Source: Phyllobacteriaceae bacterium
Lineage (GTDB): Bacteria; Pseudomonadota; Alphaproteobacteria; Rhizobiales; Rhizobiaceae
Assembly: GCA_031423755.1 (NCBI GenBank)
Contig: JANPGC010000174.1
Location: 1 to 62,426, forward strand
DNA length: 62,426 nucleotides
Direction of reading: 5' to 3'
Positions within the stretch are counted from its first letter, which is position 1. Every line of letters begins with the position of its first letter. Positions 17,056-36,523 of this stretch are shown here, piece by piece. The notes below the pieces were generated by a model. That model did not search any database and was not told where the DNA came from. It saw only the letters and a list, made by a program, of their open reading frames with translations. The position numbers and the translations under genes were made by a program.

Positions 17056-17080
17056 AACGTTTTGATGCGCAAATTGTTCC
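17056..17080 (-). promoter_or_regulatory. EcfG-type GSR promoter (GGAAC-N16-CGTT) upstream of hup
   Basis: Plus strand reads AACG-ttttgatgcgcaaatt-GTTCC, an exact match on the minus strand. Sits 10 nt after the vapC stop and about 100 nt upstream of the hup ATG. Confidence 0.6.
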
Positions 17081-17089
17081 TACGGGACG

Positions 17090-17539
17090 CTACAGCGGAA
17101 AGCGAGCCGGGTCATCGTTCCATGGGTCAAAGACGATCGCTCCCGATTCCCCGGTGTCCCTGACGTTCCTCGTCACCAGATAGAGCTGATGCTCGATAGC
17201 CGAGGCAGCAAGAAGAGTGTCGATCACCGGGGGTGCATGACTGGTCTGCCGCTTTACCCTGCCTGAGATTTCTCCCCAACGACGGACAATGCGATCACCA
17301 ACGGAAATCACGCGGCCCTTGAATCTCTCCTCCAGGGCGTCGCGATTGGCCATGTGCCGTTGCCGGTCAGGATGGTCTGCATCAAGGTTATGAATGCCCT
17401 TGTCATATTCGCCGAGGGTAAGGACACTGATAAAGAAATGGTTTTCGTTCTGGTTCTGCGCCCACATCTTCACTGATGGCGCGCCATTGGGGTTGATCAA
17501 TGCGGATATGACATTTGTGTCGAGCAACCAGCCTTTCAC
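17090..17539 (-). CDS. vapC: Type II toxin VapC (PIN-domain ribonuclease)
   Basis: 149 aa. The WLLDTNVIS N-terminus and conserved acidic residues are PIN features. GTGA overlap with the antitoxin stop. Confidence 0.85.
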   Translation of the reverse strand: MKGWLLDTNVISALINPNGAPSVKMWAQNQNENHFFISVLTLGEYDKGIHNLDADHPDRQRHMANRDALEERFKGRVISVGDRIVRRWGEISGRVKRQTSHAPPVIDTLLAASAIEHQLYLVTRNVRDTGESGAIVFDPWNDDPARFPL

Positions 17540-17844
17540 AGTTGAACGTCCCGCCCGCGGTCTTGTTCGCGCGCAAGATCAAGTTCGCCTAAGTGAAGGC
17601 CTTCCATGAATTGGATGAAGGGAACCTGCGGTTTGCGGGGCGCCAGCTGTTCGAGCTGTTCAACGCTGATAACAACAACCGCTTCACGTCCACGAACGGA
17701 GACCCGTTGCGGTCCCTCGCTGCGCGCAAGCCGGACGACTTCACTGAAGCGCGCCTTGGCGTCTTCGAGCTTCCATCCGCCACTTGCCAATCGCGTTGCG
17801 GCATCACCCTTGCCTGTCCCGGCACTTTTAACTGTCTTTCGCAT
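17536..17844 (-). CDS. Type II antitoxin, Phd/YefM-like
   Basis: Start trimmed to ATG 17844 (the ORF-track start is TTG). The core KLEDAKARFSEVVRLA...PQRVSVRGREAVVVISVEQLEQL is a Phd/YefM-type fold. Overlaps vapC. Confidence 0.75.
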   Translation of the reverse strand: MRKTVKSAGTGKGDAATRLASGGWKLEDAKARFSEVVRLARSEGPQRVSVRGREAVVVISVEQLEQLAPRKPQVPFIQFMEGLHLGELDLAREQDRGRDVQL

Positions 17845-17934
17845 CGCTTTTCCCAATCTAGTCAGATGGTCAGATAATAGCGCAAACGCGATTGAATTGC
17901 CAGATGGGTTTAGAGGTTCGAGAAAACGCTGAAA

Positions 17935-20454
17935 TCAGGTCAGATCCACTTCAATTCTGCAACGCAGTCCGTCTGACAAAAACTCCCGTGCGACAATGGC
18001 GCCAGCCAGGCTCTTGTCGATCAGTTTTGCGCCATAGGCGTCTTGACCGTGTGGCTGTGAGATCCCCGCGCCGTGCTCCTGCCAAAGGACGACAAGCCTG
18101 CGCTTCCCTCCGGCGGCCCCAGCCATGGTCCATGACAGGCAGACGGTTCCCGTCTCTCCGGACAGAGCGCCATGTCTCATCGCATTGGAAGCAAGTTCAT
18201 TAAAAATCAGGCTGAATGGCACCGAATGCTCCGGGGGCAGCCTGACCTCAGGCCCTTCGATATCGACCCTGTGACGAATGCGCGACATGTATGGTGCCAG
18301 TTGCCGCCGTGCCAGATCGCCAAGCTCAGCGCCCTTCCAGTCATTGTCAGTCAAAACGTCTTGCGCGACGGAGAGACTGTGCACACGGCCGGAGAATGCC
18401 ACAGCAAACTCTTCCGGGTTCGAAGATGATTTGAGTGTGGAGCGTAGGATCGATTGAAGAACGGCAAACGAATTCTTCACGCGATGCGCCAGCTCGCGCG
18501 ACATCAGGATCTGGCGCGCCTCCCATTCCTTGCGGTCTGAAATATCGCGCACAGTGGCGGCTATCCCGGTCACAGTCCCGTCAGAGGCGCGCACGGGAGA
18601 CACTGACAATGACGCGAAAAAGCTGGTTCCGTCCTTGCGCAGCCTTTTGGTTTCCAAAGGACCCGCAATTTCGCCGGACCTGACTTTGACCATGATCCCG
18701 GCCTGTTCGGCACTGAATTCATCTGCCGCGAGAAGCGATATGTCACAGCCGACTATCTCTTCGGCAGAATAGCCAAACAGCCTTTCTGCAGCCGGATTCC
18801 ACGCCTCGATCTTTCCGTTCAACTTTACGCCGAACAAGGCGTCCTGGGATGCAGAGGCGACTGCCGCCATGCGGGCGGTGCCTGCTTCCGCGCGCTTTCT
18901 CTCAGTCACGTCATGGTTGGTTTCAAGAATGAAAATCTCGCCCTGCAATTCCATTATCTGATGCCGGCTCTCGACGAAAATGGTGTCTCCGGTTTTGGTG
19001 GTCTGACGAAGTTCCCCGGACCATGAGCCTTCTTTCAAAAGCTGTGCCATGATGTCGGTCCAAGGCATGGGGTGATGCGACTTCAAAAGCCCGTGGCTTT
19101 GCCGCCCCAGCGCCTCCTCGCGCGAAAAGCCGTAGAGCTGTTCGGCGCCCTTGTTCCAATCGACAATGCCGTGTTGGGGGTTCCAGACAAATATCGGCTC
19201 AAACGAAAGCTCAATCAGGCTTGCCTTCCGGTGGAGGGACTGTTCAGCTTCCTTGCGCGCCGAAATGTCGATGGTGGAACCCAGATAGCGCGTGATTTGG
19301 CCGCTTTCGTTGCGGAAAACCCGCCCTGAATCCATTACCCAGACATAATGGCCATCCTTGTGCGCCACGCGGTATTCAACCGTATAGTGATCGCTGGCGG
19401 ACACGTATGAATTCGTGTTCAGACCGCTGGTTGGCAGACGGTCATCGGGATGTTTGAGCGCAGCCCAGCCCTCAGGCGTTGCTGGTATCTCATCAGCGCC
19501 CCAACCGAGCAGCCTGGTCATGCCGCTGCTGCGCCAGACGGTGCCATTTTCAATGTCCGTGTCGTAGCTAAGCGTGCCAGCCGCAGCCTCGGTGGCGGCA
19601 AAACGCTCCGCGCTGATGCGCAAAGCATTCTCGAACCGCTTTTGCCGCGTGATGTTTTCCGTCACGCCAATAGCCCGTTCAACGACGCCGGTTGCGCCGC
19701 GCATGAACTTTCCGCTCACCCGCCAGAATGCCCGGTCGCCTCGCGGATCAATGCCGCGATACTCCAATGTGTAAGTGTCGCCGCGTGTCTGCGCCTCCTC
19801 GAAGGCTTGCAGGAGTTTGGGGCGGTCCTCCGGCAAGACAAAAAAGGCGCCATCTTCCGGGCGGTCGGTCAAGCTGCCTTCCGGGCAGCCTATGATCAGG
19901 GCCGAATTTTCCGCCCAATGCATTTTGTGGCCGACGAGATCTATTTCCCAAGCGAACATGCCCGCTGTTTCGGTCGCAAGACGCAAGCGTTCTTCTGCCT
20001 GTAGCTTGGCCTCATGTGATTCCTTCAGTTGTGTTATGTCCCATGCGACACCGACCAGGCGCGTCGGCCCTTCAGATGTGCGGTCAAGCACGCTGCCGCG
20101 CGCGGCAATCCAGTGCGTCTTGCCTCCCCAGACCGTACGGTATTCGAATTCATAGGAATCAAGACCGGCCCGCAGTTGCTCATGCAGGGCCCGCTGCCGC
20201 TGCCTGTCTTCCGGATGTATCAGCGCATCCGTCAATTCGACATTTTCCACATCAATCTTGTCTGGGCTGACGCCGTGCAGGGCGCACGTCTGATCCGACC
20301 AGCGCCGCTGACCGGTGACCAGATTCATCTCCCAGGTGCCCATTCCATTGGCAGAAAGCGAGAGCTTGAGTGTCTCCAGTTGCTTGCGCAGCCAGAAATC
20401 ATCGTTTGCCGATACCGATGTGCCGCCTGAAAAACCGTCAGAAGATGAGTCCAT
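17935..20454 (-). CDS. Multi-PAS HWE-family sensor histidine kinase (839 aa)
   Basis: Several PAS/PAC repeats. C-terminal H-box AHRVKNSFAVLQSIL and W-x-E motif (LWQEHG) define the HWE family. Start moved to ATG 20454 (GAGGG RBS), because an EcfG-type promoter lies inside the ORF-track extension. Confidence 0.85.
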   Translation of the reverse strand: MDSSSDGFSGGTSVSANDDFWLRKQLETLKLSLSANGMGTWEMNLVTGQRRWSDQTCALHGVSPDKIDVENVELTDALIHPEDRQRQRALHEQLRAGLDSYEFEYRTVWGGKTHWIAARGSVLDRTSEGPTRLVGVAWDITQLKESHEAKLQAEERLRLATETAGMFAWEIDLVGHKMHWAENSALIIGCPEGSLTDRPEDGAFFVLPEDRPKLLQAFEEAQTRGDTYTLEYRGIDPRGDRAFWRVSGKFMRGATGVVERAIGVTENITRQKRFENALRISAERFAATEAAAGTLSYDTDIENGTVWRSSGMTRLLGWGADEIPATPEGWAALKHPDDRLPTSGLNTNSYVSASDHYTVEYRVAHKDGHYVWVMDSGRVFRNESGQITRYLGSTIDISARKEAEQSLHRKASLIELSFEPIFVWNPQHGIVDWNKGAEQLYGFSREEALGRQSHGLLKSHHPMPWTDIMAQLLKEGSWSGELRQTTKTGDTIFVESRHQIMELQGEIFILETNHDVTERKRAEAGTARMAAVASASQDALFGVKLNGKIEAWNPAAERLFGYSAEEIVGCDISLLAADEFSAEQAGIMVKVRSGEIAGPLETKRLRKDGTSFFASLSVSPVRASDGTVTGIAATVRDISDRKEWEARQILMSRELAHRVKNSFAVLQSILRSTLKSSSNPEEFAVAFSGRVHSLSVAQDVLTDNDWKGAELGDLARRQLAPYMSRIRHRVDIEGPEVRLPPEHSVPFSLIFNELASNAMRHGALSGETGTVCLSWTMAGAAGGKRRLVVLWQEHGAGISQPHGQDAYGAKLIDKSLAGAIVAREFLSDGLRCRIEVDLT

Positions 20455-20565: not shown

Positions 20566-20591
20566 AACGCTGCAATGCCCATAATTGTTCC
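20566..20591 (-). promoter_or_regulatory. EcfG-type GSR promoter (GGAAC-N17-CGTT) for the HWE kinase
   Basis: Plus strand reads AACG-ctgcaatgcccataatt-GTTCC, an exact match on the minus strand. Back-to-back with the phyR promoter. Confidence 0.6.
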
Positions 20592-20658
20592 ACATTTTCA
20601 AAGAGCTGCGCCAAGATCAATACTGGCGCATATCCGTCTCATCCGCATCTGCGACAAC

Positions 20659-20683
20659 GGAACTTTTTCAAATTTGCGGCGTT
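20659..20683 (+). promoter_or_regulatory. EcfG-type GSR promoter (GGAAC-N16-CGTT) for phyR
   Basis: GGAAC-tttttcaaatttgcgg-CGTT, 75 nt upstream of the phyR ATG. phyR autoregulation via EcfG is the known arrangement. Confidence 0.7.
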
Positions 20684-20757: not shown

Positions 20758-21552
20758 ATGAACCTTTCGTCGACAGTTTCGCCACACCTGCCCTTTTTGC
20801 GGCGGTTTTCGCGTGCGCTCACGGGCAGCCAGCATAGCGGCGATTCTTACGTTGCGGCGGTTCTCGATTCGATCATCGCAGACCCCGCGTGCCTTAAATC
20901 CGCGACGGACATCCGTGTTTCCCTTTACCGGCAGTATTGCAGGATTTGGCAATCCGTTTCGTTCAACATGAAATCCAATGAGATTGCCGATCCGTTTGGC
21001 GGGCGGGCGCATCAAACGATGGCCCCGATATCACCCAAAGCACGCGAAGCATTTCTGCTTTCAGGCGTTGAAGGCTTTGGCGTTGACGATATCGGCCTGA
21101 TTTTGGACTGCAGTGCCGAGCAGGTCGAATTGCTGCTCGCCGAGTCTGCGGCCTCCTTTGCTTCTCAAGCAGCCACCGATGTTCTTGTGATCGAAGATGA
21201 GCCGATCATCGCAATGGACATTGAAGACATACTGCAATCCCTTGGCCATCGCATCACCGGCATTGCGCGCACGGAAAATCAGGCGCTTGAGCTCGCGGCC
21301 CGCGAACCGCCGGGCCTCATTCTTGCCGATATCCAGCTTGCAGACGGCAGTTCCGGCTTGGACGCGGTGACCAAAATCCTGCAGCGGTTTTCCGTGCCGG
21401 TCATTTTCATCACCGCATTTCCGGAGAGCGTCCTGACCGGAGAGCGCCCTGAACCGGCATTCCTGATCAGCAAGCCTTATTTGCCCGGCATGGTCAAGGC
21501 GGTTATCAGCCAAGCGCTTCTCACGCATGTCGAGTCAAGAGCAGCGGCTTAA
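20758..21552 (+). CDS. phyR: PhyR, anti-anti-sigma factor / response regulator of the general stress response
   Basis: 264 aa from ATG 20758. N-terminal sigma-like domain (PHLPFLRRFSRALTGSQHSGDSYV) and C-terminal receiver (VLVIEDEPIIAMDIEDIL...LILADIQLADGSSG), which is the diagnostic PhyR architecture. Confidence 0.9.
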   Translation: MNLSSTVSPHLPFLRRFSRALTGSQHSGDSYVAAVLDSIIADPACLKSATDIRVSLYRQYCRIWQSVSFNMKSNEIADPFGGRAHQTMAPISPKAREAFLLSGVEGFGVDDIGLILDCSAEQVELLLAESAASFASQAATDVLVIEDEPIIAMDIEDILQSLGHRITGIARTENQALELAAREPPGLILADIQLADGSSGLDAVTKILQRFSVPVIFITAFPESVLTGERPEPAFLISKPYLPGMVKAVISQALLTHVESRAAA

Positions 21553-21571: not shown

Positions 21572-21597
21572 GGAACCTTTGGCATGTCTGCCGCGTT
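21572..21597 (+). promoter_or_regulatory. EcfG-type GSR promoter (GGAAC-N17-CGTT) for the 98-aa ORF
   Basis: GGAAC-ctttggcatgtctgccg-CGTT, starting 20 nt after the phyR stop and 59 nt upstream of ATG 21656. Confidence 0.65.
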
Positions 21598-21655: not shown

Positions 21656-21952
21656 ATGTATTCTGCCAAAGACTATGATCAGGCGCTTCTGACGCCCGAG
21701 AGCATTTTCAATGATCCGATGGATGTGGTGACGACAGAGTCGCTTACGCCCGAGCAGAAAATGACTGTTCTGAAACGTTGGGAGGCCAACGCGCGGGATC
21801 TGGAGGTCGCCTCCAGCGAGAGCATGACGGGCGGCGCCCTGTCGAAACTGGATGAAGTCGGCGCTGCGATCGCTGTGCTGATGGAGCGCGAGCCGGTTGA
21901 CGAGAACACTGTCGTTCAGGTGCAGGCGAGCCCGTCGAGCACCGCTGCATGA
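21656..21952 (+). CDS. Small acidic hypothetical protein (98 aa), predicted GSR target
   Basis: ATG 21656 has a strong GAAGGAGAA RBS. The ORF-track upstream extension overlaps the promoter. I recognise no family. Confidence 0.6.
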   Translation: MYSAKDYDQALLTPESIFNDPMDVVTTESLTPEQKMTVLKRWEANARDLEVASSESMTGGALSKLDEVGAAIAVLMEREPVDENTVVQVQASPSSTAA

Positions 21953-22052: not shown

Positions 22053-23015
22053 TCAGGCCGCAGCGGGCTGTTTTCTTGTAACCGGCATCCCCGCCCGCTC
22101 GTTGGCGTTGACGACACGCAGCGCCTCAGACGCGAGGGACCGCTGCAACAGTTTCTCAAGTCCAACCCTGAATGCGGGGCCGATGTCATCGCGCATCAAT
22201 CCATGAGCCACGTTTGCCATCAGGAACCCGAGCTTGTCGCCGCAGTCGAAGGTCACGCCTTCGAACTTGCAGCCCCAGAACGGCTGCTCGGCCATCAGCG
22301 CAATCATAGCATCAGTCAGCTGAATTTCGCCGCCGGCGCCTGGCTTTGCAGTCTCTATTTTGCCAAAGATTTCCGGCTGCAAAATGTAGCGGCCGGATAT
22401 GATGTGATTGGAAGGTGCTTGCTCGCGCTCCGGCTTCTCGATCATGCCTTTGATCGCCAGCGCCAAACCATCAGTTTTGCTGAAATCGACCACACCATAG
22501 CGGCTGACCTCTGCCCAAGGCACTTCTTCAACGGCAATGATGTTGCCGCCGCCTGTCTCGGCGTAGATGTCCATCATCTGTTTGAGGCAGCCGGGCTCGG
22601 ATTGCATCACCATATCAGGCAGCAACAGCGCGAAGGGCTCATCGCCAATCATGTTGCGCGCGCACCACACTGCATGCCCGAGCCCCAGCGGCTCCTGCTG
22701 CCGGGTGAAACTGGTCTGGCCCGCGCTAGGCAGATCATTTTCCAACAGGCCAAGCTCTTCCGATTTGCCGCGCTTGCGCAGGACAGATTCAAGCTCGGTC
22801 TGCTTGTCGAAGTGATCTTCAATCGCATTCTTGTTGCGCCCGGTGACAAAAACAAAATGCTCGATGCCCGCCTCGCGCGCCTCATCGACCGCCATCTGAA
22901 TGACGGGCCGGTCGACAATTGTCAGCATTTCCTTGGGGATAGCCTTTGTCGCGGGAAGGAACCTCGTTCCAAGTCCTGCCACGGGAAAAACGGCTTTGCG
23001 GATGCGCTTGCGCAT
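22053..23015 (-). CDS. galU: UTP--glucose-1-phosphate uridylyltransferase
   Basis: 320 aa. The N-terminus [34 protein letters not shown] is the canonical GalU motif. Confidence 0.9.
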
Positions 23016-23102: not shown

Positions 23103-23127
23103 AACGCGTTTGAAGCGACTTCGTTCC
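23103..23127 (-). promoter_or_regulatory. EcfG-type GSR promoter (GGAAC-N16-CGTT) for galU
   Basis: Plus strand reads AACG-cgtttgaagcgacttc-GTTCC, exact on the minus strand, 88 nt upstream of the galU ATG. Confidence 0.6.
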
Positions 23128-23174: not shown

Positions 23175-24215
23175 TCATGCAGCCGTTGCCAGGATGGATG
23201 TGAACGTTGCCCGCGTGATGGTGATCGTCGTGCCACCGCTGCTCGTTTCGGTCTCAACCCTGCCATCCAGCTGCTTGGCCAAAGCTTGAACAAGCGTTGT
23301 GCCAAGGCCGCCTTTTTTGCCGACGGCTCTTTCCTTGATACCGCCGCCATTGTCGGACACGGACAGTTTCCAGTCTTCGCCGCTCACCTCATATCCGACC
23401 ACAACGCGGCCATCCTGCACGTCTAGCGGAAAGGCGTGCTTGAGCGCATTCATCACAAGCTCTGTAACGATCAAACCGATGCTGACCGCCTGCTGCGACG
23501 GCACCGCGCCGTCGTCTGCGACAACGGTGAGGGAAATTGGTCTGCGCTCCCGGATCATGGAGTCTTTGAGCGTCTCGCACAGCGTCGTCAAATAGTCGCT
23601 GACTTTGATATTATCGCCCGTTCCGGACGCCCGCAGGTGCTGCTGCAGCGTCGCGATGGACATCACCCTGCGATGCGCATCCTCAAGATGGCCGCGCGAT
23701 TCCTCCGAACTGACAGAGCGCGCCTTGAGCATCAGTATGCTGGCGACGATCTGCAGGCTGTTGGCCACCCGGTGGCTCATCTCGGAGAGAAGCGTGTCTT
23801 TTTGCTCGCTGAGAGTGATAAGCTGCCGCTCTGCTGCCCGGCGGGTGGTGACGTCCTCAATCGCGAGCAGAAGAGTGCTGTTGAGGTCGCCCTCGTAAAA
23901 GACTTTGCGCGCATTCAGCATCATCGTGCGCTGGCCGATGTGCGGAAAGTTTTGCTCGATCTCAAAATGGTCCATTACGCCGTGTTCGGGCAGGATCCGG
24001 TCAAGCAGATCGCGCAAATCGGGGTTGTTCCATTCACCTGAGCCAAGGTCATAAATTTTGTGACCCAATGTCTCGCCAGCGGTGGTCTGGAAAGTTGAAT
24101 AGAAGGAACGGCTGGCGGAAACCACGCGCAGGTCGCCGTCAAGCACGAGCAGAGAATCCCGCACTGTATCGACCATGGCCTGTGCCAATGCACGTCCGTC
24201 CTCAATGGTGTCCAT
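23175..24215 (-). CDS. PAS + HisKA_2 sensor histidine kinase (PhyK/LovK-like)
   Basis: 346 aa. N-terminal PAS domain, H-box SHRVANSLQIVASIL (HisKA_2), and a HATPase_c G-boxes region (DNGGGI, GGLGTTLV). Confidence 0.85.
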   Translation of the reverse strand: MDTIEDGRALAQAMVDTVRDSLLVLDGDLRVVSASRSFYSTFQTTAGETLGHKIYDLGSGEWNNPDLRDLLDRILPEHGVMDHFEIEQNFPHIGQRTMMLNARKVFYEGDLNSTLLLAIEDVTTRRAAERQLITLSEQKDTLLSEMSHRVANSLQIVASILMLKARSVSSEESRGHLEDAHRRVMSIATLQQHLRASGTGDNIKVSDYLTTLCETLKDSMIRERRPISLTVVADDGAVPSQQAVSIGLIVTELVMNALKHAFPLDVQDGRVVVGYEVSGEDWKLSVSDNGGGIKERAVGKKGGLGTTLVQALAKQLDGRVETETSSGGTTITITRATFTSILATAA

Positions 24216-24246: not shown

Positions 24247-24271
24247 TGAACCACTTTACAGCTATTGCGTT
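24247..24271 (+). promoter_or_regulatory. Near-consensus EcfG-type motif (TGAAC-N16-CGTT) upstream of the RHH gene
   Basis: One mismatch in the -35 element. Located 80 nt upstream of ATG 24352. Weaker than the eight exact sites. Confidence 0.3.
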
Positions 24272-24351
24272 ACATTGACAGAACTAATCGCGCACCCATT
24301 GAAATTAGAATTAAAACATCCATATACCATCCACACAGATGGAAAGTTGTC

Positions 24352-26018: not shown

Positions 26019-26510
26019 CTACATTGCCACTCTTGCATGCTGCGCGGCGTCTGTCTCCGAGGGCCTCTCGCCCTTGATATAGGCCTTGAGCGCCGTCATC
26101 GCATAGCTTACGCCTTCCAAACCGGAATTGTCCCAATACTCGGCGTCTGTCGGATCGATCTTCATGATGACCAGCGATGGATCCTCTTTCCCCTCCGGGA
26201 ACCACACTTTCCACGCTTCCGACCACAGCCTGTCGATCAAGGCGGGGTCGGTCGAAAGTTCCGCGGTGCCCTGCAGCGAAACATAGACGGACCCGTCCTG
26301 CATGATCAGCGTCACGTCCGGATTGATGGCGATATCGCGCAGCTTTGCAGAATCGAGTGATGTGGCAAAATACAGTCCGCCGTCCTCGCCGATTTCGGCA
26401 ATGGCCATCGGCCGCGCATGCATTGATCTGTCGCCTGAGGTGGTAATCATCATGGCGGTCGAAAAGCCCTTGAGGAGATCAACAAGGTGGCGTTTTGGCT
26501 GATGGTTCAT
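26019..26510 (-). CDS. Pyridoxamine-5'-phosphate-oxidase-like general stress protein 26 family
   Basis: 163 aa. PNPOx-like split-barrel sequence type (FSTAMMITTSGD...HARPM...YFATS..S.K...I..NP.V). Confidence 0.75.
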   Translation of the reverse strand: MNHQPKRHLVDLLKGFSTAMMITTSGDRSMHARPMAIAEIGEDGGLYFATSLDSAKLRDIAINPDVTLIMQDGSVYVSLQGTAELSTDPALIDRLWSEAWKVWFPEGKEDPSLVIMKIDPTDAEYWDNSGLEGVSYAMTALKAYIKGERPSETDAAQHARVAM

Positions 26511-26547: not shown

Positions 26548-26572
26548 AACGGACTCGGCTCGATATGGTTCC
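26548..26572 (-). promoter_or_regulatory. EcfG-type GSR promoter (GGAAC-N16-CGTT) for the Gsp26-like gene
   Basis: Plus strand reads AACG-gactcggctcgatatg-GTTCC, exact on the minus strand, 38 nt upstream of ATG 26510 and 21 nt after the ndvB stop. Confidence 0.65.
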
Positions 26573-26592: not shown

Positions 26593-29500
26593 CTAGGCTG
26601 TGGCCAGTGGCAAGCCAATTGCATGGACTTTTCCATCGTTAGCCAACGTGATCAGAAACTCGCCCGGCCCGGCCATCTCGACACCCGCAGGCAGCGCAAT
26701 ATCCTGTGCGAGGTCGCGCGAAATGCTGATGTCGTAACGGGACTCGCCAATCTTTACACTGACGTCGAAGCCCGGCCATTCGGCAGGAATGCACGGCTTG
26801 ACGCGCAGCTTTCCGCCTTCTCGTGTGACTCCCAGTATCGCCTCAAGCCCGGCGCGATGCATCCAGCTGGCGGAACCCGTGTACCAGGTCCAACCGCCGC
26901 GCCCGATATGCGGCGCAACGGAATAGACGTCTGCCGCCATGACATAGGGCTCCACACGATATCGCGCGGCGTCTACCGGCGTGCGGGAATGGTTGATCGG
27001 ATTGAGCATCGAGAACAGCTGCATCGCGCGTTCAGACTGACCAAGTTTCGCATGGGCAAAAATCGACCAGATGACACCATGCGTATACTGTCCGCCATTC
27101 TCGCGGATGCCCGGCGGGTAGGCTTTGACGTAGCCCGGCTCTTGCGCTGATTTGTCGAACGGCGGCGTGAATAAAAGCGCCAGACCATCATCGGGGCGCA
27201 CGAGCTGGCGCCAGGATTGCTCCATCGCCGCCGCCGCGCGTTCCGGTGAAGCACCGCCAGAGATCACGGCCCATGATTGCGCAATGGCGTCGATGCGGCA
27301 CTCCTCGCTTTGCGCTGATCCGAGCGGTGAGCCGTCGTCGAAAAATCCCCGCCGGTACCACTCGCCGTCCCAGCCATCCCTCTCAAGAGAGACAGACAAG
27401 TCAGCCATCCGCAGCTTCCACGCCGTGGCCCGGGCTCTGTCCCTGCGCTTTTCAGCCACGGGAATAAATGCCCGCAGCGTTGACAGCAGGAACCAGCCGA
27501 GCCAGACGCTCTCGCCCTTGCCGCCCTCGCCGACACGGTTCATGCCGTCATTCCAGTCGCCGGTGCCCATCAGCGGCAATCCGTGCGCTCCCTGTGCCAG
27601 GCTGCGGTCCAAGGCGCGCGCGCAATGCTCATACAAGCTGCCGCTCTCTTCCGGGATAGAAGGGACAAAAAACGCATCATGCGCGCCGGGCTCGAGATGC
27701 TGGCCATCAATGAACAGTATTTGCTCTTCCAAAATCGCCCTGTCGCCGGTGACCGTGAGATATTGGCTCACGCAATTGGCGAGCCAGACCATGTCGTCTG
27801 ATATCCGCGTTCTGACGCCTGCGCCCGTCTCCGGGAGCCACCAATGCTGGAAGTCGCCTTCAACAAATTGCCGTGAAGCAGCGCGCAGTATCTGTTCGCG
27901 CGCATAGTCCGGGCGGGTTATCAGCAGCGACAGAGAATCCTGCAGCTGGTCACGGAAACCATAGGCGCCGCTCGCCTGATAAAAGCCCGACCTTGCCCAC
28001 ATCCTGCATGCAAGGGACTGATAGAGCAGCCAGCCGTTCATCATGATGTCAAATGACCGATCCGGCGTCCTGACTTGGACTGCGCCAAGCGTGTCGCGCC
28101 AGAAGGCTTTCACGTCGGCCCATACCGCGTCCGATGGCTTCTGCCGCGATTGCAGGATCAGCTCCTGGGCCGCGCCTTCGTTTGTCGCAGCGCCAAACAG
28201 TATGGTGACCTCGTCCGTCTCTCCGGGTGCAATCTCCAATGTCGTCTGCATTGCGCAGCACGGGTCCAGCCCCGCACCGGTGCGCTTGGACAGGACCACG
28301 CCAGCAGCCAGCGCCTTCGGGTTGGCCAGACTTCCGAACGCGCCGAGAAACTCGCGCCGGTCGCCCGTCCACGCTGTCTGACGCCCAAGCATGTCCGCAA
28401 AGGCAACCTGACCGCCAGACTGTATGCTCCACGGGTTCCTGGCAAACAGCGCCCCCGTCTTCTCATCTATCGCAGTGGTGATGAACGGAGCAGATGCCGC
28501 CCGCGGCGGGCCGAGCACCAGATCGGCATAAAATGTGACTGTGACACGCATCGTTGCGGCAGAACGGTTGGTCAGCTTGAGGCGCGAAATCTTGACCGAG
28601 CCCTCCAGTGGCACCGTCTGCAAAAGCTCAAGCTGAAGATCATCCCTCTCGCGTTCGAAGATTGAATAGCCGAAACCGTGCCGGGCCGTATGCGTTCCAT
28701 CCGCGGAATTCAGCGGTTTGAGCGTCGGCGATACCAAGCTTCCGTCGGCGTCATTCCTGACAAAGATCGCCTCACTCGCCGGGTTGCTGACCGGGTCATT
28801 CGTCCATTGCGTCAGCTGATTTTCGCGGCTGTTGCCAAACCATGTGTAGCCGCCGCCATCTGCCGAGCATTGAAATCCGAAGGTTTTGTTGGCAATCACG
28901 TTCAACCAGGGCGCAGGCGTTGGCATGGCGCTGCTCACTTGCGTGACATACTCGCGCCCATCATCCAGAAAGCTTCCGATGCCATTGTGAAATTCCCCGT
29001 TTTGCGTCTCTTTGCCCTGAAGCTTGAGGGATCGCCGCACTGGAAGCATGGCCGTGGCCGGAAGCGTCACAGGCTCCGGAGCGTCGGTAATCCGGCTCAA
29101 TTGACTGGCCAGACCGCCGCGCCGGGCAATCATCACCACGCGGGCCACGGCAGGCAGTACCCGCTGGCTTTCCGATGGCAGGAGATCGGCGCGCAGCGTG
29201 AACACATCGCCGGCTCCCGCATTTGATCCGTCCACCTTAGGGGTTGTGCTCTTTCGCACCAGCGCCTCAATCGCGACCTGCAAATCCTGCGTATACGAAG
29301 ACATGCGGTCGTTCACAATGATGACATCGACCGCCAGCCGCTTGGTTTTCCAGTACTCAAACGCGCGCAAAATATCGTGGACGAGATCGATATGCTCAAT
29401 GTCGTCGATCCGCACCAACAGGATCGGCCGGTCGCCGGAAATGCCATGCGGCCACAGCGATGACTGCGGCCCGATGTTGTCCTGCAGAAACCTTGATGAC

Positions 29501-32500
29501 GGCCGAAGCGCAGCGCTCGGATGGATCAAATGGCTCGCCAGCTGCTGATACAGATGTGCTTCTTCATGACTGATCGACAAATGACGCAGCTGGATTTGCG
29601 CTTGCGTCCACGCCAGCGTCAGCGCCCGCTCATACGCGGCTTCCTGACGATGACGGTCAACAAGATCGAGCACCGCCTCGCGCGAGGCGGCGGCGACCAT
29701 CCAAAGCGTGCATTTCACTTGCCTACCAGCAGGGATGCGCAGCCGCAGCTTGAACGCAAAAATCGGGTCAAGCACCGCGCCAAGGGTCTTGGACAGCGCT
29801 TGGCCGGTTACAAACGCCTGCGGGCTGCGGCGCGAATTTCCGATCCCGACAAAGCGCTCGCGATCGGTTTCATACTCAAGCTCGCCAACTTTCAACCCAT
29901 CCCAGACCAGAAACTGAGCCGTCCAGACTTCAGGTTCCGAAGGAGACCGCCTGCGACGCGTGGCGATCAGCGTCTCAAGCTCCGGCACATACTCCGTTTC
30001 AACAAACATCTTTGAGAATGCCGGATGGGCATTGTCGGCAGCGCGCGGCGCAAGGACCAATTCGGCATAAGAAGTCAGCTCGACATCCCTTGCTGACGAC
30101 GAACGGTTGGTGATGGTCACACGGCGCGCCTCAGCGTCGTCTTCGGGCGAAACCAGGCACTCCAGCGACGTGGTGAAGGAACCGTCCGTGCGGCCGATCT
30201 CGGCCTTGTCCTCGCTGAACGAAGCTTGGTAGAAATCCGGCTTGCGCCCAAGCGGCATGAAGCCCGCCGACCATTTCTGTTCGGTTCTGGCATCGCGCAC
30301 GTAAAAGAAACTGCCCCAGTCGTCGCTCACACTGTCTTCGCGCCAGCGGGTAAGCGCGATGTCGTTCCATGTGCTGTAACCCCCGCCTGCCGCGTTCAGC
30401 ATGACGCTGTAGCTGCCGTTTGACATCAGGTGGGTCACCGGTGTGCCCAACTCTGCGAAGCCAACGCGCCGGACCGTCGGCGCAAGCGGTCCGGCGGCGG
30501 CGTTGCCAGCGGACGTTTCCGCGCGTGCAAGCATGATCGGCACATCGCGCGGCGCGCGCTCCTGCAGCAAAAGCTCGGTCGCGCGGACAATCGGCTCGGC
30601 GTGGAACCGGTCCCGCATCTGGCCGTCTTTCACGGTGTTGAGTATCGCAGTGATCGTCATGCCCTGATGATGGGCAAAATAGGCCCGCACAATGGCTGCC
30701 GTCTCGCCCATTTGCAGGCGCGAGGGTGTGAAGTCCAGCGCTTCGTAAAATCCATAAATGCCATCGGCGCCAAGGGCTGCAAGGCGTTCATAATTCCTGA
30801 CGGCCATTTTTGGCGAAACCATCGATGCCAGCCCGGTAGCATAGGGCGCGATCACGAGATTTTCCGACAGACCCCGCTTCAAGCCAAGGCCGGGAATGCC
30901 GAAGTTGGAATACTGATAGGTGAATTCAATATCACGGGCGTTGAAGGCAGATTCCGAAACACCCCAGGGAACCCCGTGGCTGTTTCCATAGTCGATCTGA
31001 CGCCGCACGATGAGCCGTGTTGTCTGGTCAAGCAGGCTGCCGAACGGCGCGCGCATCACGAGTGATGGCATGAGATACTCGAACATCGAGCCGGACCACG
31101 AGACAAGCGCCGCCCCGCCCTTGACCGCCGTCACCGTCCTGCCCAGCCGGAACCAATGGCGGGTGCGAAGGTCGCCCTTGGCGATGGCAAAGAAGCTGCC
31201 AAGCCGCGCCTCGGACGCCAGCATGTCGTAACAGCTTTCGTCCCGCATCGCCTCTGGAACGCGGAACCCGATGGAAAAGAGCAGGCGTTGGGGATCAAGC
31301 AGAAATCCGAACTCCATTCGATCGGCAAGCGAGCGCGATTCGTGCGCCAGTTCTTCCAACCGCTCGCGCTGTTTGAGCAGCGCTTCATGGCCTATCGAAC
31401 CATCACGGAAATGGCTTTCAATTGTCTGCTGCAGAGTCTCGGCCCACGCAGGCAATTGCCGCCCTGCCGGCGAAGCCAGCGCGGTGTCGAACTCTTTCAC
31501 CGCATCGAGAATTCCATTTGCCTGAACGGCAAATTCAATCAGCCGCATCGGCAACAGCTCGGGCGTCTGCCTGGCGTTGTTGATCCTGTCACGCAATGCG
31601 GCAAGCTTTGTTTCAATACCTTTGCGCATGGCCCGCAAATTGCGGCGGTCATCCGGAATGGCAGCCAGACCGTCTGCCAGAATATCAACAACGTCACTCA
31701 AGCCGTCGAGCTTTGACAGATTGTCTGGCGGCTCGCTTTTCCATTGGTCGCAATAGTTCGCCAGTGCAATGAAATGCCCGGCAAGATTGCCGCTGTCGAC
31801 AGTCGAGACATACTTTGGCTCAAGCGGCAGAAGCGTCTGCGTGTCGTACCAATTATAGAGATGCCCCCTGTAGGCCTCCATGCGCCGCACGGTGTCGATG
31901 GTCTTCTCCAAACGCGAGACCGCATCGCCAAGCCCAAGCCAGCCAAACTCCTTGGCGCTGGCGACGGCGAGAAGGTAAAGGCCGATGTTGGTAGGCGACG
32001 TCCGGTGCGCGATTCTCGGATCGGGATCTTCCTGGAAATTGTCCGGCGGAAGCATCGAATCTTCGCTGGTGACAAATGTCTCGAAAAACCGCCAGGTCTT
32101 GCGCGCCACGCGGCGCAGCGCCTTGATGTCTTGCGGAGCAATTGTTTCAGCGTCCACCAGCTTGGGACGCTGACTGAGCCAATGGGCGCAAGCGGGCGCC
32201 AGGAGCCAAGCCAGGGCAAAGGGTGTGATCGCAATTGACGTGGCGTCCGCTCGCAATACGGCAATGGCAAGAGCAATGAGGCCGAGCAGAATGCTGCCGG
32301 TCATCATCCGGAACAGAACGCCTATTCCTGGCGTCGGGCTGGAAGCGGCTTGCGCTGCGGTTGTCCATTCGAGCATGTTCTTGCCGCTGATCTTCAGCCG
32401 GTAGATTGTGCGCAACACCGCGTCGCCCATCAGCCAAGCCTGATGGCCAAGGAACACCAAGGTGGCAAGCGCATAGGCCAGCGCATGGCCGAAATCGTCC

Positions 32501-35112
32501 AGATTCGCCCGGACCTGACTGTCGATGGTTACACCTTTGCGTTTCGGCACTGATCCGAGAACGGAGGGTAGAAAGACAGGAAACGCACCGATCAATGCCA
32601 TCGCCATCGTCCAGCGGACGGCAGTTTCTGCGGGCAGCAGAAGCCAGCCAAGCATAAAGCTCAAGACAAGCGCGATAGGCGTTAACGACCGCCTCAGATT
32701 ATCCGCCATCTTCCAGACGCCCAACGCCGGAATGGCCGCCGTTGAAACGCCCTTCGTTCCAAACCATTGCGAGCCGAGCCAAGGCAGCAGTTGCCAGTCG
32801 CCACGAACCCAGCGGTGCTGGCGGGACGCTGCAACGGTGTAACGGTCCGGGTATTCCTCGACAACTTCGATGTCCGTGACCAGAGCGGAGCGCGCAAAAA
32901 CGCCTTCAAACAGATCGTGGCTCAGCATCGCGTTCTCAGGGATTTTGCCCTTGATCGCAGCTTCAAATGCCTCAATGTCGTAGATGCCTTTGCCGGCGAA
33001 TGACCCCTCTCCAAACAGGTCCTGATAGACATCCGACACGGCGAACACATAAGGATCAGTCCCGCGCGGCGTGGAAAATATGCGCTGGAACAAAGATCCA
33101 TTGTGGCCAGTCGGCAAGGAAGGCGTGACGCGGGGCTGCAACACGCCATAACCGCTCGTGACCCGCCCCAGATCAGCATCGAACACAGGCCGGTTGAGTG
33201 GATGCGCCAGCTTGCCGACGAGCCTGCGCGCGGCGTCTCGCGGCAGCTTTGTATCAGCATCAAGCGTCAGCACGAACCTGACCGCGTCCGGAATTTCGCC
33301 GCCAATTGTCGTGAAGCTTGTGTCTGCTGCACCCGTGAGCAGGCGGTTCAGCTCATGCAGTTTCCCGCGCTTGCGCTCCCAGCCCATCCACTTGTTTTCG
33401 AGGTCGTTCCATTTTCTGGAGCGGTGCAGCAAAAGGAAGCAATTGGTGTTGTGGTCTGCGTTAAGCCGGGCAATGCCAGCCAAGGCTTCGTTCAAAAGCT
33501 CATCGTCGCCGCCCCTTGTCTCGGTCGCGGAATCGGTCCAGTCGGTGACAAGCGCAAAGTAGAGCTCGCCGGCCGAATTGGAGAGATAATGCACCTCCAG
33601 CCGGTCGATCATTTCAGCAATGTCGTCGCGTGATGTCAAAAGTGTTGGAACCGCAACGAGGGTCCGATAATGCGCCGGCACGCCATCGCGCAAGGCCAGA
33701 CCTGGAATGACCGAGGCCTCCAACATTCGCGTCACGGCGAAATTCACCAGCGAAAGTGCAGTCTCAACAAGCGGCAGAAGCGCTGCAACGGCGAGTGCGA
33801 TAAGAAGCACGGTTGAGGTTTCAACTGCAAAAACTTTGCTGAACAACGCCCAGAACACTGCCAGCGTCACCAAAATGATCGCGCCGCCATAACCAGCCAG
33901 TCCCAGCGACTTCAGTGTTGTTCTGACGCGCCGAAGCAGTGGCGGCTTGAAATTCAACTGCTGTTCAAATTCTGCGCGCCCCGCGCCAATGAGAAAATAA
34001 CCCGGATCCCGCTGCGCCGAACCGCCGTTTCCGGCAGCGTTTGCGGCTTTGGCCAACGCCGTGCGCGCAACGTCAAGTTCATCCGAGGCGGAACCGCGCG
34101 AAAGCTCTTCAACGGCGGTGCGGTAGAGAGTCCTGCTTGGAAAATCCATCTCGCCGAAATCAGACTTGTCCCGCAGCTCGCGGTCGACAAGGCTCACCTC
34201 GTCAAACCAGTTCTCCCAGTTGACGTCCGACACGTAACGCATGCTGGTGATGATGTTGCGGACGGTCACATTGGCAGAACTCTGACGATGATGCTCATCA
34301 GTGACGGTAGACTCGAGTGAGTGGCCTTGCATTTCAACGCGGCGTTTGAGCCATTCCAGCGAATGGGCGGCCAAACCGTCCTGATCGCGCAGCCTGTGGA
34401 TGAGCTGGACAGCAAATGCGTTGGAAAGATCCTTGCCTTCCAGCTGCCGGTACTGCTCCTCTGCTGCGGCCGGGATGGCTTGCGGCTGCAAGACCATGTC
34501 TGCAAGCCTGTCCGCCTGTTCGCGGGCGCGCCGGGCGGCCGTTATCCGCACCGATATCCGGCGAAGATTCTCGATCAGGATCAGCCGCAAACTGATCGCT
34601 ACCGCCCATAGCTCGCCAATGGTAAGCGGCTGCACCTGCTGATACTCATTGACGAAATCGCTCAGCAGTGCGGGATTGAAGGCGCTGTCCGTGTGCGCCA
34701 CATGGGCCCAGACCAAGCCGAAAATCCGTGGATGTCCGGCAAGGGGACCGGTGCCAAGTTTCGGCAACTGGCTATAGTAGCCTGGAGGCAAATCGGCTCT
34801 GGTCTGGCGTATCTGCTCTTCGACGAGATGATAGTTGTCGATCAGCCATTCGGCAGCAGGTGTTATCGGCTTGCCCTCACCGATTGCCACGGTGATTTCC
34901 CGGACGCATTTCAGCAACTCGGCAGCGTTGTCGTTCAGGCGGTTGATAATGGAGTGGACCCGCTGCGGATTATCGGTCACCGTCTGCGATTCAGCCAGTG
35001 TGCGGGCGTGCTGCTTTGAGCGTTCGGGACCGAATATTTCCGCGCTGATAGGCTGGCTGTCGTCCCACTGCGCCTTTGGCCGGTCAATTTGCTGCATAAG
35101 CTTTTGAAACAT
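26593..35112 (-). CDS. ndvB: Cyclic beta-1,2-glucan synthase (GT84 + GH94 domains), 2839 aa
   Basis: Giant ORF with NdvB/ChvB/Cgs organisation and size: N-terminal TM-flanked glycosyltransferase and C-terminal GH94 phosphorylase-like region. Start set to ATG 35112, because the ORF-track TTG at 35193 lies 8 nt from the -10 of the promoter. Confidence 0.93.
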   Translation of the reverse strand: MFQKLMQQIDRPKAQWDDSQPISAEIFGPERSKQHARTLAESQTVTDNPQRVHSIINRLNDNAAELLKCVREITVAIGEGKPITPAAEWLIDNYHLVEEQIRQTRADLPPGYYSQLPKLGTGPLAGHPRIFGLVWAHVAHTDSAFNPALLSDFVNEYQQVQPLTIGELWAVAISLRLILIENLRRISVRITAARRAREQADRLADMVLQPQAIPAAAEEQYRQLEGKDLSNAFAVQLIHRLRDQDGLAAHSLEWLKRRVEMQGHSLESTVTDEHHRQSSANVTVRNIITSMRYVSDVNWENWFDEVSLVDRELRDKSDFGEMDFPSRTLYRTAVEELSRGSASDELDVARTALAKAANAAGNGGSAQRDPGYFLIGAGRAEFEQQLNFKPPLLRRVRTTLKSLGLAGYGGAIILVTLAVFWALFSKVFAVETSTVLLIALAVAALLPLVETALSLVNFAVTRMLEASVIPGLALRDGVPAHYRTLVAVPTLLTSRDDIAEMIDRLEVHYLSNSAGELYFALVTDWTDSATETRGGDDELLNEALAGIARLNADHNTNCFLLLHRSRKWNDLENKWMGWERKRGKLHELNRLLTGAADTSFTTIGGEIPDAVRFVLTLDADTKLPRDAARRLVGKLAHPLNRPVFDADLGRVTSGYGVLQPRVTPSLPTGHNGSLFQRIFSTPRGTDPYVFAVSDVYQDLFGEGSFAGKGIYDIEAFEAAIKGKIPENAMLSHDLFEGVFARSALVTDIEVVEEYPDRYTVAASRQHRWVRGDWQLLPWLGSQWFGTKGVSTAAIPALGVWKMADNLRRSLTPIALVLSFMLGWLLLPAETAVRWTMAMALIGAFPVFLPSVLGSVPKRKGVTIDSQVRANLDDFGHALAYALATLVFLGHQAWLMGDAVLRTIYRLKISGKNMLEWTTAAQAASSPTPGIGVLFRMMTGSILLGLIALAIAVLRADATSIAITPFALAWLLAPACAHWLSQRPKLVDAETIAPQDIKALRRVARKTWRFFETFVTSEDSMLPPDNFQEDPDPRIAHRTSPTNIGLYLLAVASAKEFGWLGLGDAVSRLEKTIDTVRRMEAYRGHLYNWYDTQTLLPLEPKYVSTVDSGNLAGHFIALANYCDQWKSEPPDNLSKLDGLSDVVDILADGLAAIPDDRRNLRAMRKGIETKLAALRDRINNARQTPELLPMRLIEFAVQANGILDAVKEFDTALASPAGRQLPAWAETLQQTIESHFRDGSIGHEALLKQRERLEELAHESRSLADRMEFGFLLDPQRLLFSIGFRVPEAMRDESCYDMLASEARLGSFFAIAKGDLRTRHWFRLGRTVTAVKGGAALVSWSGSMFEYLMPSLVMRAPFGSLLDQTTRLIVRRQIDYGNSHGVPWGVSESAFNARDIEFTYQYSNFGIPGLGLKRGLSENLVIAPYATGLASMVSPKMAVRNYERLAALGADGIYGFYEALDFTPSRLQMGETAAIVRAYFAHHQGMTITAILNTVKDGQMRDRFHAEPIVRATELLLQERAPRDVPIMLARAETSAGNAAAGPLAPTVRRVGFAELGTPVTHLMSNGSYSVMLNAAGGGYSTWNDIALTRWREDSVSDDWGSFFYVRDARTEQKWSAGFMPLGRKPDFYQASFSEDKAEIGRTDGSFTTSLECLVSPEDDAEARRVTITNRSSSARDVELTSYAELVLAPRAADNAHPAFSKMFVETEYVPELETLIATRRRRSPSEPEVWTAQFLVWDGLKVGELEYETDRERFVGIGNSRRSPQAFVTGQALSKTLGAVLDPIFAFKLRLRIPAGRQVKCTLWMVAAASREAVLDLVDRHRQEAAYERALTLAWTQAQIQLRHLSISHEEAHLYQQLASHLIHPSAALRPSSRFLQDNIGPQSSLWPHGISGDRPILLVRIDDIEHIDLVHDILRAFEYWKTKRLAVDVIIVNDRMSSYTQDLQVAIEALVRKSTTPKVDGSNAGAGDVFTLRADLLPSESQRVLPAVARVVMIARRGGLASQLSRITDAPEPVTLPATAMLPVRRSLKLQGKETQNGEFHNGIGSFLDDGREYVTQVSSAMPTPAPWLNVIANKTFGFQCSADGGGYTWFGNSRENQLTQWTNDPVSNPASEAIFVRNDADGSLVSPTLKPLNSADGTHTARHGFGYSIFERERDDLQLELLQTVPLEGSVKISRLKLTNRSAATMRVTVTFYADLVLGPPRAASAPFITTAIDEKTGALFARNPWSIQSGGQVAFADMLGRQTAWTGDRREFLGAFGSLANPKALAAGVVLSKRTGAGLDPCCAMQTTLEIAPGETDEVTILFGAATNEGAAQELILQSRQKPSDAVWADVKAFWRDTLGAVQVRTPDRSFDIMMNGWLLYQSLACRMWARSGFYQASGAYGFRDQLQDSLSLLITRPDYAREQILRAASRQFVEGDFQHWWLPETGAGVRTRISDDMVWLANCVSQYLTVTGDRAILEEQILFIDGQHLEPGAHDAFFVPSIPEESGSLYEHCARALDRSLAQGAHGLPLMGTGDWNDGMNRVGEGGKGESVWLGWFLLSTLRAFIPVAEKRRDRARATAWKLRMADLSVSLERDGWDGEWYRRGFFDDGSPLGSAQSEECRIDAIAQSWAVISGGASPERAAAAMEQSWRQLVRPDDGLALLFTPPFDKSAQEPGYVKAYPPGIRENGGQYTHGVIWSIFAHAKLGQSERAMQLFSMLNPINHSRTPVDAARYRVEPYVMAADVYSVAPHIGRGGWTWYTGSASWMHRAGLEAILGVTREGGKLRVKPCIPAEWPGFDVSVKIGESRYDISISRDLAQDIALPAGVEMAGPGEFLITLANDGKVHAIGLPLATA

Positions 35113-35200
35113 GGACAGCGGCTTTCCCTTCAAGTGGAAACTGATGAGGCCGCAAATCCAGTCGCGCCTATGGACGAGGGTTTCCCAGCTCAATCCGATT

Positions 35201-35225
35201 AACGGTTGAGCGCGCTATTGGTTCC
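35201..35225 (-). promoter_or_regulatory. EcfG-type GSR promoter (GGAAC-N16-CGTT) for ndvB
   Basis: Plus strand reads AACG-gttgagcgcgctattg-GTTCC, exact on the minus strand, 89 nt upstream of ATG 35112. Confidence 0.65.
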
Positions 35226-35375
35226 GGCAACCAGGAAAGCCGCCTCCTGAATCTGCGTTTGCGGGTTCAACAGTCTGCCAGACGGCGGCACGTGCTTTCG
35301 TCCTGCCCGATCAAGCGAAAACCGGCGCACCAGGTAAATTGGCGCGCCGGGCCATACAAGTATGAATTGCAATCA

Positions 35376-35957
35376 TCAGATGACGCGGCGGGTTCGTTCG
35401 ATCTCAGCTTCTTTGTCCGCCATGGACTCTTCGGCTGTTTCAAACTTGGTCCATCCGCTGTTGCGGTACTCGGTGCCGAGTTCAGTCGGATCAAGCGGGC
35501 GATGCTCATCAAGGATTGAATGGACCTGATCAAGTTGACCGTCACCTGATCGCACGGAAAGCAGCGTGCCGCCGCGGCGAACGGCTTCAGAGTAGACCTG
35601 CGCATGCTCGTCATCAAGACCGGAACTGACCAGCGATCCCACTATTCCGCCCGTCGCACCACCTGCAACAGCGCCAACGGCGGTGCTCACGAGCCAGCCG
35701 GCGGCGACAACCGGTCCGACACCGGGAATAGCCATAAGTCCAAGGCCAGTCAGCAGGCCAGCTGCACCACCGACTGCCGCGCCGATGCCCGCTCCGGTTC
35801 CAGCTTCTGAAACGCCGTCGTCATTTGCAGGGCGTTCGTCATTTTTGTTGTTGGCAATCATGCTGATCTCGGACGAGTGGATGCCCGCCGCTTCAAGCGC
35901 TCTGACAGCGCGCTTTGCCTGATCGTAATTGTCGAAAACTTTGGTAATGGTTTGCAT
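35376..35957 (-). CDS. General stress protein 17M (YflT)-like domain protein with glycine-zipper membrane segment
   Basis: 193 aa. N-terminus VFDNYDQAKRAVRALEAAGIHSSEISMIANN followed by a Gly/Ala-rich zipper (GAGIGAAVGGAAGLLTGLGL...). Confidence 0.7.
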   Translation of the reverse strand: MQTITKVFDNYDQAKRAVRALEAAGIHSSEISMIANNKNDERPANDDGVSEAGTGAGIGAAVGGAAGLLTGLGLMAIPGVGPVVAAGWLVSTAVGAVAGGATGGIVGSLVSSGLDDEHAQVYSEAVRRGGTLLSVRSGDGQLDQVHSILDEHRPLDPTELGTEYRNSGWTKFETAEESMADKEAEIERTRRVI

Positions 35958-35992
35958 TTTTCGTGCCTTTCATAAGATTGAAGTGATGGAAT

Positions 35993-36442
35993 TTACTGCG
36001 CGACGACGTTGCCCTTGAAATCAACGGCGACATTCACTGACTTGCCGTCTTTCATGGCAGTGCCACGCCAAATGCCCTTGTCGTCTTTCGCCAATGCCGT
36101 CGGAGCGATCATTCCGGCTGCCACAATGCGGTCACCGGCTTGGCCTTCTGTAAAGCTGTTTGCACCCTCGAGCGGCGCGCCTTCATCCACCGCAGCGGTG
36201 GCGAAAACATCAGCCTTGCAATTTTCCTGGAACATCGCCTCATTCAGCATCGTGCCCTCGGCCAACGGCTTCTCCGAAAGCCTCAGCCACGCCGCATAGC
36301 GGTCGCCCTCGCTCCCGTTAAGCATTCCATCGCCATTTGTGTCAGCTTGTTTCCACATTGCAGAACAGTCAGCATCCGTCATGGCGAACGCAGGCGCGCT
36401 GATGAATAGGCAAGCGGCCGCGGTGAGAAGTAACTTCTTCAT
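35993..36442 (-). CDS. Secreted EF-hand-like protein (149 aa)
   Basis: ATG 36442 (AAGGA RBS) gives the signal peptide MKKLLLTAAACLFISAPAFA. Contains the Ca-binding-like loop DTNGDGMLNGSE. An alternative ATG exists at 36460. The ORF-track start lies upstream of the promoter. Confidence 0.6.
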   Translation of the reverse strand: MKKLLLTAAACLFISAPAFAMTDADCSAMWKQADTNGDGMLNGSEGDRYAAWLRLSEKPLAEGTMLNEAMFQENCKADVFATAAVDEGAPLEGANSFTEGQAGDRIVAAGMIAPTALAKDDKGIWRGTAMKDGKSVNVAVDFKGNVVAQ

Positions 36443-36498
36443 GAGGTTCATCCTTGTCATTGGTTCGTTGATCGCAGCATTGTGCGGCTCAGCAGAAC

Positions 36499-36523
36499 AA
36501 CGCCGCTGACGGCACACGGTTCC
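36499..36523 (-). promoter_or_regulatory. EcfG-type GSR promoter (GGAAC-N16-CGTT) for the EF-hand / YflT-like gene pair
   Basis: Plus strand reads AACG-ccgctgacggcacacg-GTTCC, exact on the minus strand, 57 nt upstream of ATG 36442. Confidence 0.65.

Follow-up and report, generated by a model that had tools for sequence, protein, structure and literature searches.

Eight predicted EcfG-type promoters mark a phyR locus in an uncultured Hyphomicrobiales bacterium

Genes and promoter motifs of the phyR locus

The DNA analysed here, a stretch of 62,426 bp from an uncultured Hyphomicrobiales bacterium (contig JANPGC010000174.1, assembly GCA_031423755.1; hereafter the window), contains the regulatory core of the general stress response (GSR) of alphaproteobacteria together with candidate target genes, eight of which are preceded by the same promoter-like motif. 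A gene map of the window was built from open reading frames (ORFs), GC content at third codon positions (GC3) and family searches, giving 89% coding and 10.7% intergenic sequence. The anti-anti-sigma response regulator is encoded by phyR (20758–21552, (+)), with a length of 264 amino acids (aa) recorded in an independent gene call, a match to NF006623 (332 bits, cutoff 240) and the domains PF22029 and PF22233 (PhyR_sigma2 and PhyR_sigma-like) and PF00072 (receiver). Near phyR lie two genes for kinases with an HRxxN H-box, a feature typical of GSR kinases (PMC8103513). The first is a sensor histidine kinase that combines five PAS domains with an HWE domain (17935–20454, (-); Pfam PAS_3 x5 and HWE_HK; H-box HRVKN), with orthologs in the related loci L083 and L089, and the second a PhyK-like PAS-HisKA_2 kinase identified by family searches (23175–24215, (-); H-box HRVAN), which has no EcfG motif.

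A scan of both strands of the whole window for GGAAC-N{16,17}-CGTT gave exactly eight matches and none elsewhere, reproducing all the coordinates listed in the initial annotation of this DNA. The motif is, as that annotation had proposed, the published sigma-EcfG consensus, described as GGAAC-N16-CGTT for R. etli sigma-EcfG1 (PMC3892343) and as GAAC-N16,17-C/GGTT for EcfG (PMC4814048). The chance level was set by 100 dinucleotide-preserving shuffles of the window, which gave a mean of 1.03 matches, in agreement with the earlier rough estimate of about one, and a maximum of 5, with 0/100 shuffles reaching eight. All eight sites are intergenic and each shares its strand with the next gene downstream, with distances from CGTT to the start codon of 37–111 nucleotides (nt) after start correction, so that the count of coding against intergenic hits and of orientations over the window bears out the earlier statement that the sites face the next gene from about 40–110 nt upstream. 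Spacers and flanks are only ~25% identical among the eight, and the sites are therefore independent, with no repeat behind them. Together they span 19.5 kb, of which ndvB alone occupies 8.5 kb.

Two of the exact matches stand back to back between phyR and the PAS-HWE kinase gene. The putative autoregulatory promoter of phyR (20659–20683, (+)) lies 74 nt from its start codon, and the divergent kinase promoter (20566–20591, (-); N17) lies 111 nt from ATG 20454, the probable start of the kinase, the longest-ORF start at 20601 being upstream of the kinase's own promoter. A third site (21572–21597, (+); N17) begins 20 nt past the phyR stop codon and 58 nt upstream of orf98 (21656–21952, (+)), which encodes a conserved protein with no match in Pfam or NCBIfam and is called as a gene of 97–100 aa in the related loci L086, L087, L089 and L175. 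The site at 23103–23127 (-) precedes galU by 87 nt (22053–23015, (-); UTP--glucose-1-phosphate uridylyltransferase, TIGR01099 with 341 bits against a cutoff of 326.8), and that at 26548–26572 (-) lies 37 nt from a gene for a pyridoxamine-5'-phosphate-oxidase (PNPOx)-like protein of the general stress protein 26 (Gsp26) type (26019–26510, (-); PF16242, E=5.4e-43). The ndvB/cgs gene for cyclic beta-1,2-glucan synthase (26593–35112, (-)) has GH94 domains and is recorded at 2839 aa, which places its start at ATG 35112, 88 nt from the exact site at 35201–35225 (-); its relatives carry the JGI name cyclic beta-1,2-glucan synthetase.

At the two ends of the cluster are the site at 17056–17080 (-) (N16), 100 nt upstream of ATG 16955 of a gene for a 92-aa HU/IHF-family DNA-binding protein (16677–16955, (-); PF00216, E=3.8e-29), and that at 36499–36523 (-), 56 nt upstream of orf149. 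The product of the latter gene (35993–36442, (-)), predicted to be secreted, bears a signal peptide and the EF-hand-like loop DTNGDGMLNGSE, for which the EF-hand_1 match (E=0.011) is below the Pfam cutoff; the orf149 ortholog in L171 is also called at 149 aa. A gene for a YflT-domain stress protein (35376–35957, (-); PF11181, 27.9 bits against a cutoff of 26.2) starts 35 nt downstream of orf149, and the two are probably co-transcribed. Family searches thus upheld the gene identities first assigned from the sequence (HU, PAS-HWE kinase, PhyR, the 98-aa ORF, galU, PNPOx/Gsp26-like, cyclic glucan synthase and the EF-hand/YflT pair), and the three start codons that had been corrected from promoter positions (ndvB, HWE kinase and EF-hand gene) hold in the light of the recorded lengths and of the kinase ORF start upstream of its promoter.

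Relaxed variants of the motif (GAAC..., ...GTT, GGAA... and spacers of N15 or N18) were also scanned in the window and gave extra matches in coding sequence only, apart from three: an intergenic GGAAA-N17-CGTT at 35234–35259 (+), a partly coding GAAC match at 48441–48465 (+) and a TGAAC-N16-CGTT at 24247–24271 (+), 80 nt upstream of ATG 24352 of an RHH_8 regulator gene. The last had been noted before as a one-mismatch site, and its existence is confirmed. L086 keeps it in a region of 85% identity, neither box survives in L083, and its role as an EcfG promoter is doubtful.

Conservation of the sites in relatives and clustering around phyR

Loci fetched for comparison bear L-numbers; L083–L090 and L171–L174 are from metagenome assemblies, and the genes in the lower-GC loci L001–L003 were mapped by tblastn. 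The best PhyR match in reference genomes is ~60% identical, with no close relative there, and the nearest comparisons are with L083 and L086/L171 (PhyR 81–83% identical to that of the window) and L087–L090 (65–68%), along with the ndvB genes of L171–L174 (78–87%).

The phyR promoter is kept in L083–L090 with invariant boxes and diverged spacers and flanks, and the kinase promoter likewise shows GGAAC and CGTT unchanged in L083 and L086 around a diverged spacer. For orf98, the promoter is exact in L086, L087 and L089, again with diverged spacers, and L083 lacks the gene along with its promoter. An exact motif lies 34–38 nt upstream of the PNPOx gene in 9/9 homologs, with invariant boxes and variable spacers, and the L171 ortholog of orf149, 90% identical, has an exact motif at 56 nt upstream, with a diverged spacer between the kept boxes. 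The galU promoter is exact in L087–L090 and L002. That of ndvB is exact at the window's distance of ~88 nt (85–86 nt by the estimate used for the homolog count) in L171, L172 and L173, with diverged spacers between unchanged boxes, and exact in L002 as well; in L173, ndvB sits in an unrelated gene neighbourhood with the motif still present, and the promoter therefore travels with the gene. Conservation of the boxes amid diverged spacers supports a function for most of the sites.

Counted over all fetched loci, an exact upstream motif was found for 9/10 homologs of orf98, 9/9 of the PNPOx gene, 4/5 of ndvB and 5/10 of galU, against 0/19 for the HisKA_2 kinase, 0/5 for RHH_8 and 0/7 for the PHB-depolymerase-like esterase that is also encoded at the locus. 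The high counts for orf98, PNPOx and ndvB next to none for these neighbours indicate that the motif tracks specific genes and not the neighbourhood. None of 75 YflT homologs from a metagenome scan carried the motif, a loose negative control since these are only distant relatives (<=52% identity).

The density of the motif around phyR was assessed in 80 phyR neighbourhoods of other Hyphomicrobiales (1.48 Mb in total), which contain 418 exact motifs against ~23 expected from first-order Markov shuffles. The motifs number 13 per 10 kb within 1 kb upstream of phyR, 2.3–6.5 per 10 kb from -7 to +4 kb and ~0.15 per 10 kb beyond roughly 8 kb; an exact motif stands upstream of phyR in 55/80 of these loci, and Mesorhizobium loci have 9–10 sites within ~10 kb. 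The promoter cluster of the window is therefore typical, such clusters being the norm in this order. The initial annotation had seen in it a contiguous GSR regulon block as opposed to scattered targets: the cluster is real, but blocks of this kind are common in Hyphomicrobiales and a single contig cannot exclude a scattered regulon. The ~18-fold concentration of the motif from -7 to +4 kb of phyR can serve for the prediction of GSR targets and as a guide to GSR loci in metagenomes.

Several side observations were made in the course of these comparisons. An exact motif is present ~20–50 nt past the phyR stop in many Rhizobium/Agrobacterium loci (L023, L027, L039, L049, L051, L056 and others, at ~10811–10841 (+)), as it is at 21572 in the window. 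L171 (GCA_031422915.1, from which L086 also comes) has an exact EcfG motif at 18536–18560 (+), just past the ndvB stop and antisense into a CHRD-domain gene, and a GGAAC-N16-GGTT variant at 19328–19352 (-), 48 nt upstream of the same CHRD gene, which the window does not have. Genes resembling orf149 and the YflT gene are paired on distant metagenome contigs (L096, L099, L115, L118, L126, L136, L137, L140, L152, L156 and L164; 45–58% identity, without EcfG motif), and they therefore form a gene couple conserved beyond the window's clade. Upstream of RHH_8, a hairpin CCATC-N6-GATGG at 24327–24342 overlaps the Shine-Dalgarno sequence (ATG 24352), with arms that are invariant in L083 and L086 and one loop base that varies; its role might be that of an operator or of an element controlling translation.

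Between the PAS-HWE kinase gene and the HU promoter lie genes for a Phd/YefM antitoxin of ~102 aa (~17536–17856, (-)) and a PIN/VapC toxin (17090–17539, (-)), a pair found in near-identical strains and not in L083. A one-mismatch match to the motif at 17545–17568 falls within the coding part of the antitoxin gene and was discounted as a chance hit. Beyond the HU gene, strains with ~95% identical DNA (L176 and L179–L181) join that gene directly to position ~2508 downward, so that ~14 kb of the window (~2509–16644) is a strain-specific insertion, carrying a catechol-dioxygenase gene, an ABC transporter, a LysR gene and a glyoxalase-family gene. An Rfam search of the window gave no match.

Absence of nepR-ecfG and interpretation of the sites

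The eight sites are, in all likelihood, promoters used by RNA polymerase with EcfG, a member of the ECF15 group of extracytoplasmic function (ECF) sigma factors, and mark the core GSR locus of this uncultured bacterium. Partner switching between PhyR, NepR and EcfG is the established GSR pathway. Applied to the window, stress-sensing HWE/HisKA_2 kinases would phosphorylate PhyR, phospho-PhyR would sequester NepR, the anti-sigma factor, and EcfG, once free, would recognise GGAAC at -35 and CGTT at -10 and transcribe its targets. With phyR and the PAS-HWE kinase gene among these targets the circuit would include positive feedback, and the effector targets would be the HU-like nucleoid protein, orf98, the Gsp26/PNPOx-like protein, the secreted EF-hand protein with YflT, galU and ndvB. 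The galU product would make the UDP-glucose that the ndvB product would polymerise into periplasmic cyclic beta-1,2-glucan. That galU and ndvB each have a conserved EcfG-type promoter suggests general-stress control of cyclic glucan synthesis in this clade, with the two genes forming a coherent sub-module. We infer EcfG dependence of the eight genes, their transcription start sites, their induction by stress and the link from the kinases to PhyR. The outcome is a map of a GSR locus with eight predicted direct targets in an uncultured lineage, with several start codons corrected, and the predicted link between glucan and stress is relevant to models of symbiosis and pathogenesis that rely on cyclic glucans.

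Several points weigh against this assignment. Neither ecfG nor nepR, whose absence the initial annotation had not remarked on, was found in the 62-kb window by tblastn with the EcfG and NepR sequences of M. loti and of L089, and a search for EcfG homologs yielded no sigma factor from the window's clade. At the level of single sites, the aligned galU site in L083 and L086 reads GGAAC-N16-AGTT, with a weakened -10 box, and the ndvB motif is missing in L174; the HU promoter is intact in strains ~95% identical, where seven nearby substitutions all fall outside GGAAC/CGTT, these relatives being so close that the support is weak. Finally, no published report was found of EcfG dependence of ndvB, galU or HU, the S. 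meliloti supplementary tables (ndvB, exoN) being only partly covered. Two candidates for the missing proteins were rejected: the 74-aa ORF at 36489–36713 has a weak tblastn match to NepR (E=8) and no NepR features, and a candidate EcfG for the window's clade belonged to another metagenome-assembled genome, one with a canonical locus.

Comparison of gene order places this absence in a wider frame. In 76/80 reference loci ecfG adjoins phyR, and L083 and L086 share the window layout without nepR-ecfG at phyR. In L087–L090 and L175, the backbone phyR-orf98-galU is flanked on its other side by nepR-ecfG-DUF3309-AI-2E-RR-Crp-DUF3008-279aa; the counterpart of the window kinase lies ~5 kb from phyR, beyond the nepR-ecfG block, in L089/L090, and a different HWE kinase follows that block in L175. 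In the window, the PAS-HWE kinase sits behind the divergent promoter, in the place of nepR-ecfG. Since the order phyR-orf98-galU is shared with the canonical loci, the window phyR is an ortholog of the canonical-locus phyR, which points to a lineage-specific loss or relocation, and the simplest reading of these layouts is that the ~5-kb nepR-ecfG block was deleted or moved in the window's clade. The distance to the phyR -35 box is 55–67 nt for the kinase promoter, whose spacer is N17, and 21 nt for the nepR promoter found in the relatives, whose spacer is N16. Three diverged lineages show apparent selection on the promoters, so that an ecfG gene very probably exists elsewhere in the genome; it and nepR must lie outside the contig.

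The window without ecfG, and the fact that many ECF sigma factors use an AAC-containing -35 and a CGT-type -10 element (PMC8103513), leave some room for the idea that the sites serve a different ECF sigma factor of similar consensus, their link to PhyR being one of mere proximity. This is improbable: the full 9-base consensus with N16/17 corresponds to that published for EcfG (PMC3892343), the ORFs scanned in the window yielded no gene for another ECF sigma factor, and in the relatives that retain the sigma gene (L087–L090) nepR-ecfG and phyR are both preceded by the same motif, which is the defining autoregulation of EcfG. Somewhat less probable still is that some of the sites are decaying relics of a GSR that has been degenerating since the loss of nepR-ecfG, with too little time elapsed for the motifs to decay. 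The absence of nepR-ecfG at the locus in the window, L083 and L086, the weakened galU -10 box in the last two and the loss of orf98 with its promoter in L083 would fit such a course. However, three lineages without an adjacent sigma gene (PhyR 81–83% identical) keep exact boxes amid diverged spacers and flanks, which argues for continued selection and against relics, and phyR and both kinase genes are intact ORFs. That the matches arose by chance or as copies of a dispersed repeat bearing the motif, for which nothing speaks except the shortness of a motif with 9 specified bases, is hardly credible given the shuffles, the confinement of all eight to the 10.7% intergenic fraction in the correct orientation, the dissimilar spacers and flanks and the retention of sites at orthologous positions.

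The reading of the eight sites as EcfG promoters thus being preferred, a broader and more tentative proposal may be made, which we hold to be possible but not quite probable: that the GSR locus has been rewired, with the nepR-ecfG block excised from between phyR and the five-PAS HWE kinase and that kinase placed behind an EcfG promoter as a new positive-feedback arm, and with galU and ndvB/cgs recruited as direct GSR targets. If true, this would couple envelope glucan synthesis, a known factor in host interaction and osmoadaptation, to the sigma factor of the general stress response. The promoter class and the regulatory system are themselves well known, and the less routine points are the missing nepR-ecfG and the promoters of galU and ndvB.

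Comparison with known GSR loci and regulons

In the canonical layout phyR is divergent from nepR-ecfG, with both under GSR promoters (PMC8103513, PMC4814048), and in the GSR loci of Methylobacterium, Sinorhizobium (rsiB1-rsiA1-rpoE2), R. etli, Brucella and Caulobacter an HWE/HisKA_2 kinase is encoded near phyR. Like these, the window encodes PhyR and, close to it, HRxxN kinases, has a second EcfG-type promoter divergent from the autoregulatory GGAAC-N16-CGTT promoter of phyR, and includes Gsp26 and YflT stress proteins among the predicted targets. Unlike them, it has no nepR or ecfG at the locus or on the contig, and the divergent promoter precedes a five-PAS HWE kinase instead. A precedent for ecfG away from phyR is given by Methylobacterium extorquens AM1, whose phyR locus contains none of its ecfG genes (PMC4814048). 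The window goes further than this precedent in that it is without nepR as well. In M. extorquens, nepR presumably remains beside phyR.

EcfG/RpoE2 regulons have been defined experimentally in S. meliloti (PMC3616915), R. etli (PMC3892343) and S. melonis (PMC6599016), and in S. melonis the motifs are enriched within 100 bp of start codons and a Gsp26 gene carries an EcfG motif (PMC6599016). The predicted targets of the window resemble these regulons in sharing the same consensus, motifs mostly within ~100 bp of the starts, and regulators and small stress proteins among the genes concerned. The searchable texts on the three regulons do not name cyclic glucan synthase, galU or the HU-like gene as targets, no paper linking cyclic glucan synthase to EcfG was found in the searchable literature, and the S. 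meliloti glucan exporter gene ndvA has been assigned to FeuP control. In R. etli, the EcfG-dependent small RNA ReC64 maps downstream of phyR-tcrY (PMC3892343), so that an EcfG-type unit follows just downstream of phyR in both cases, the small RNA ReC64 in R. etli and, by prediction, orf98 in the window.

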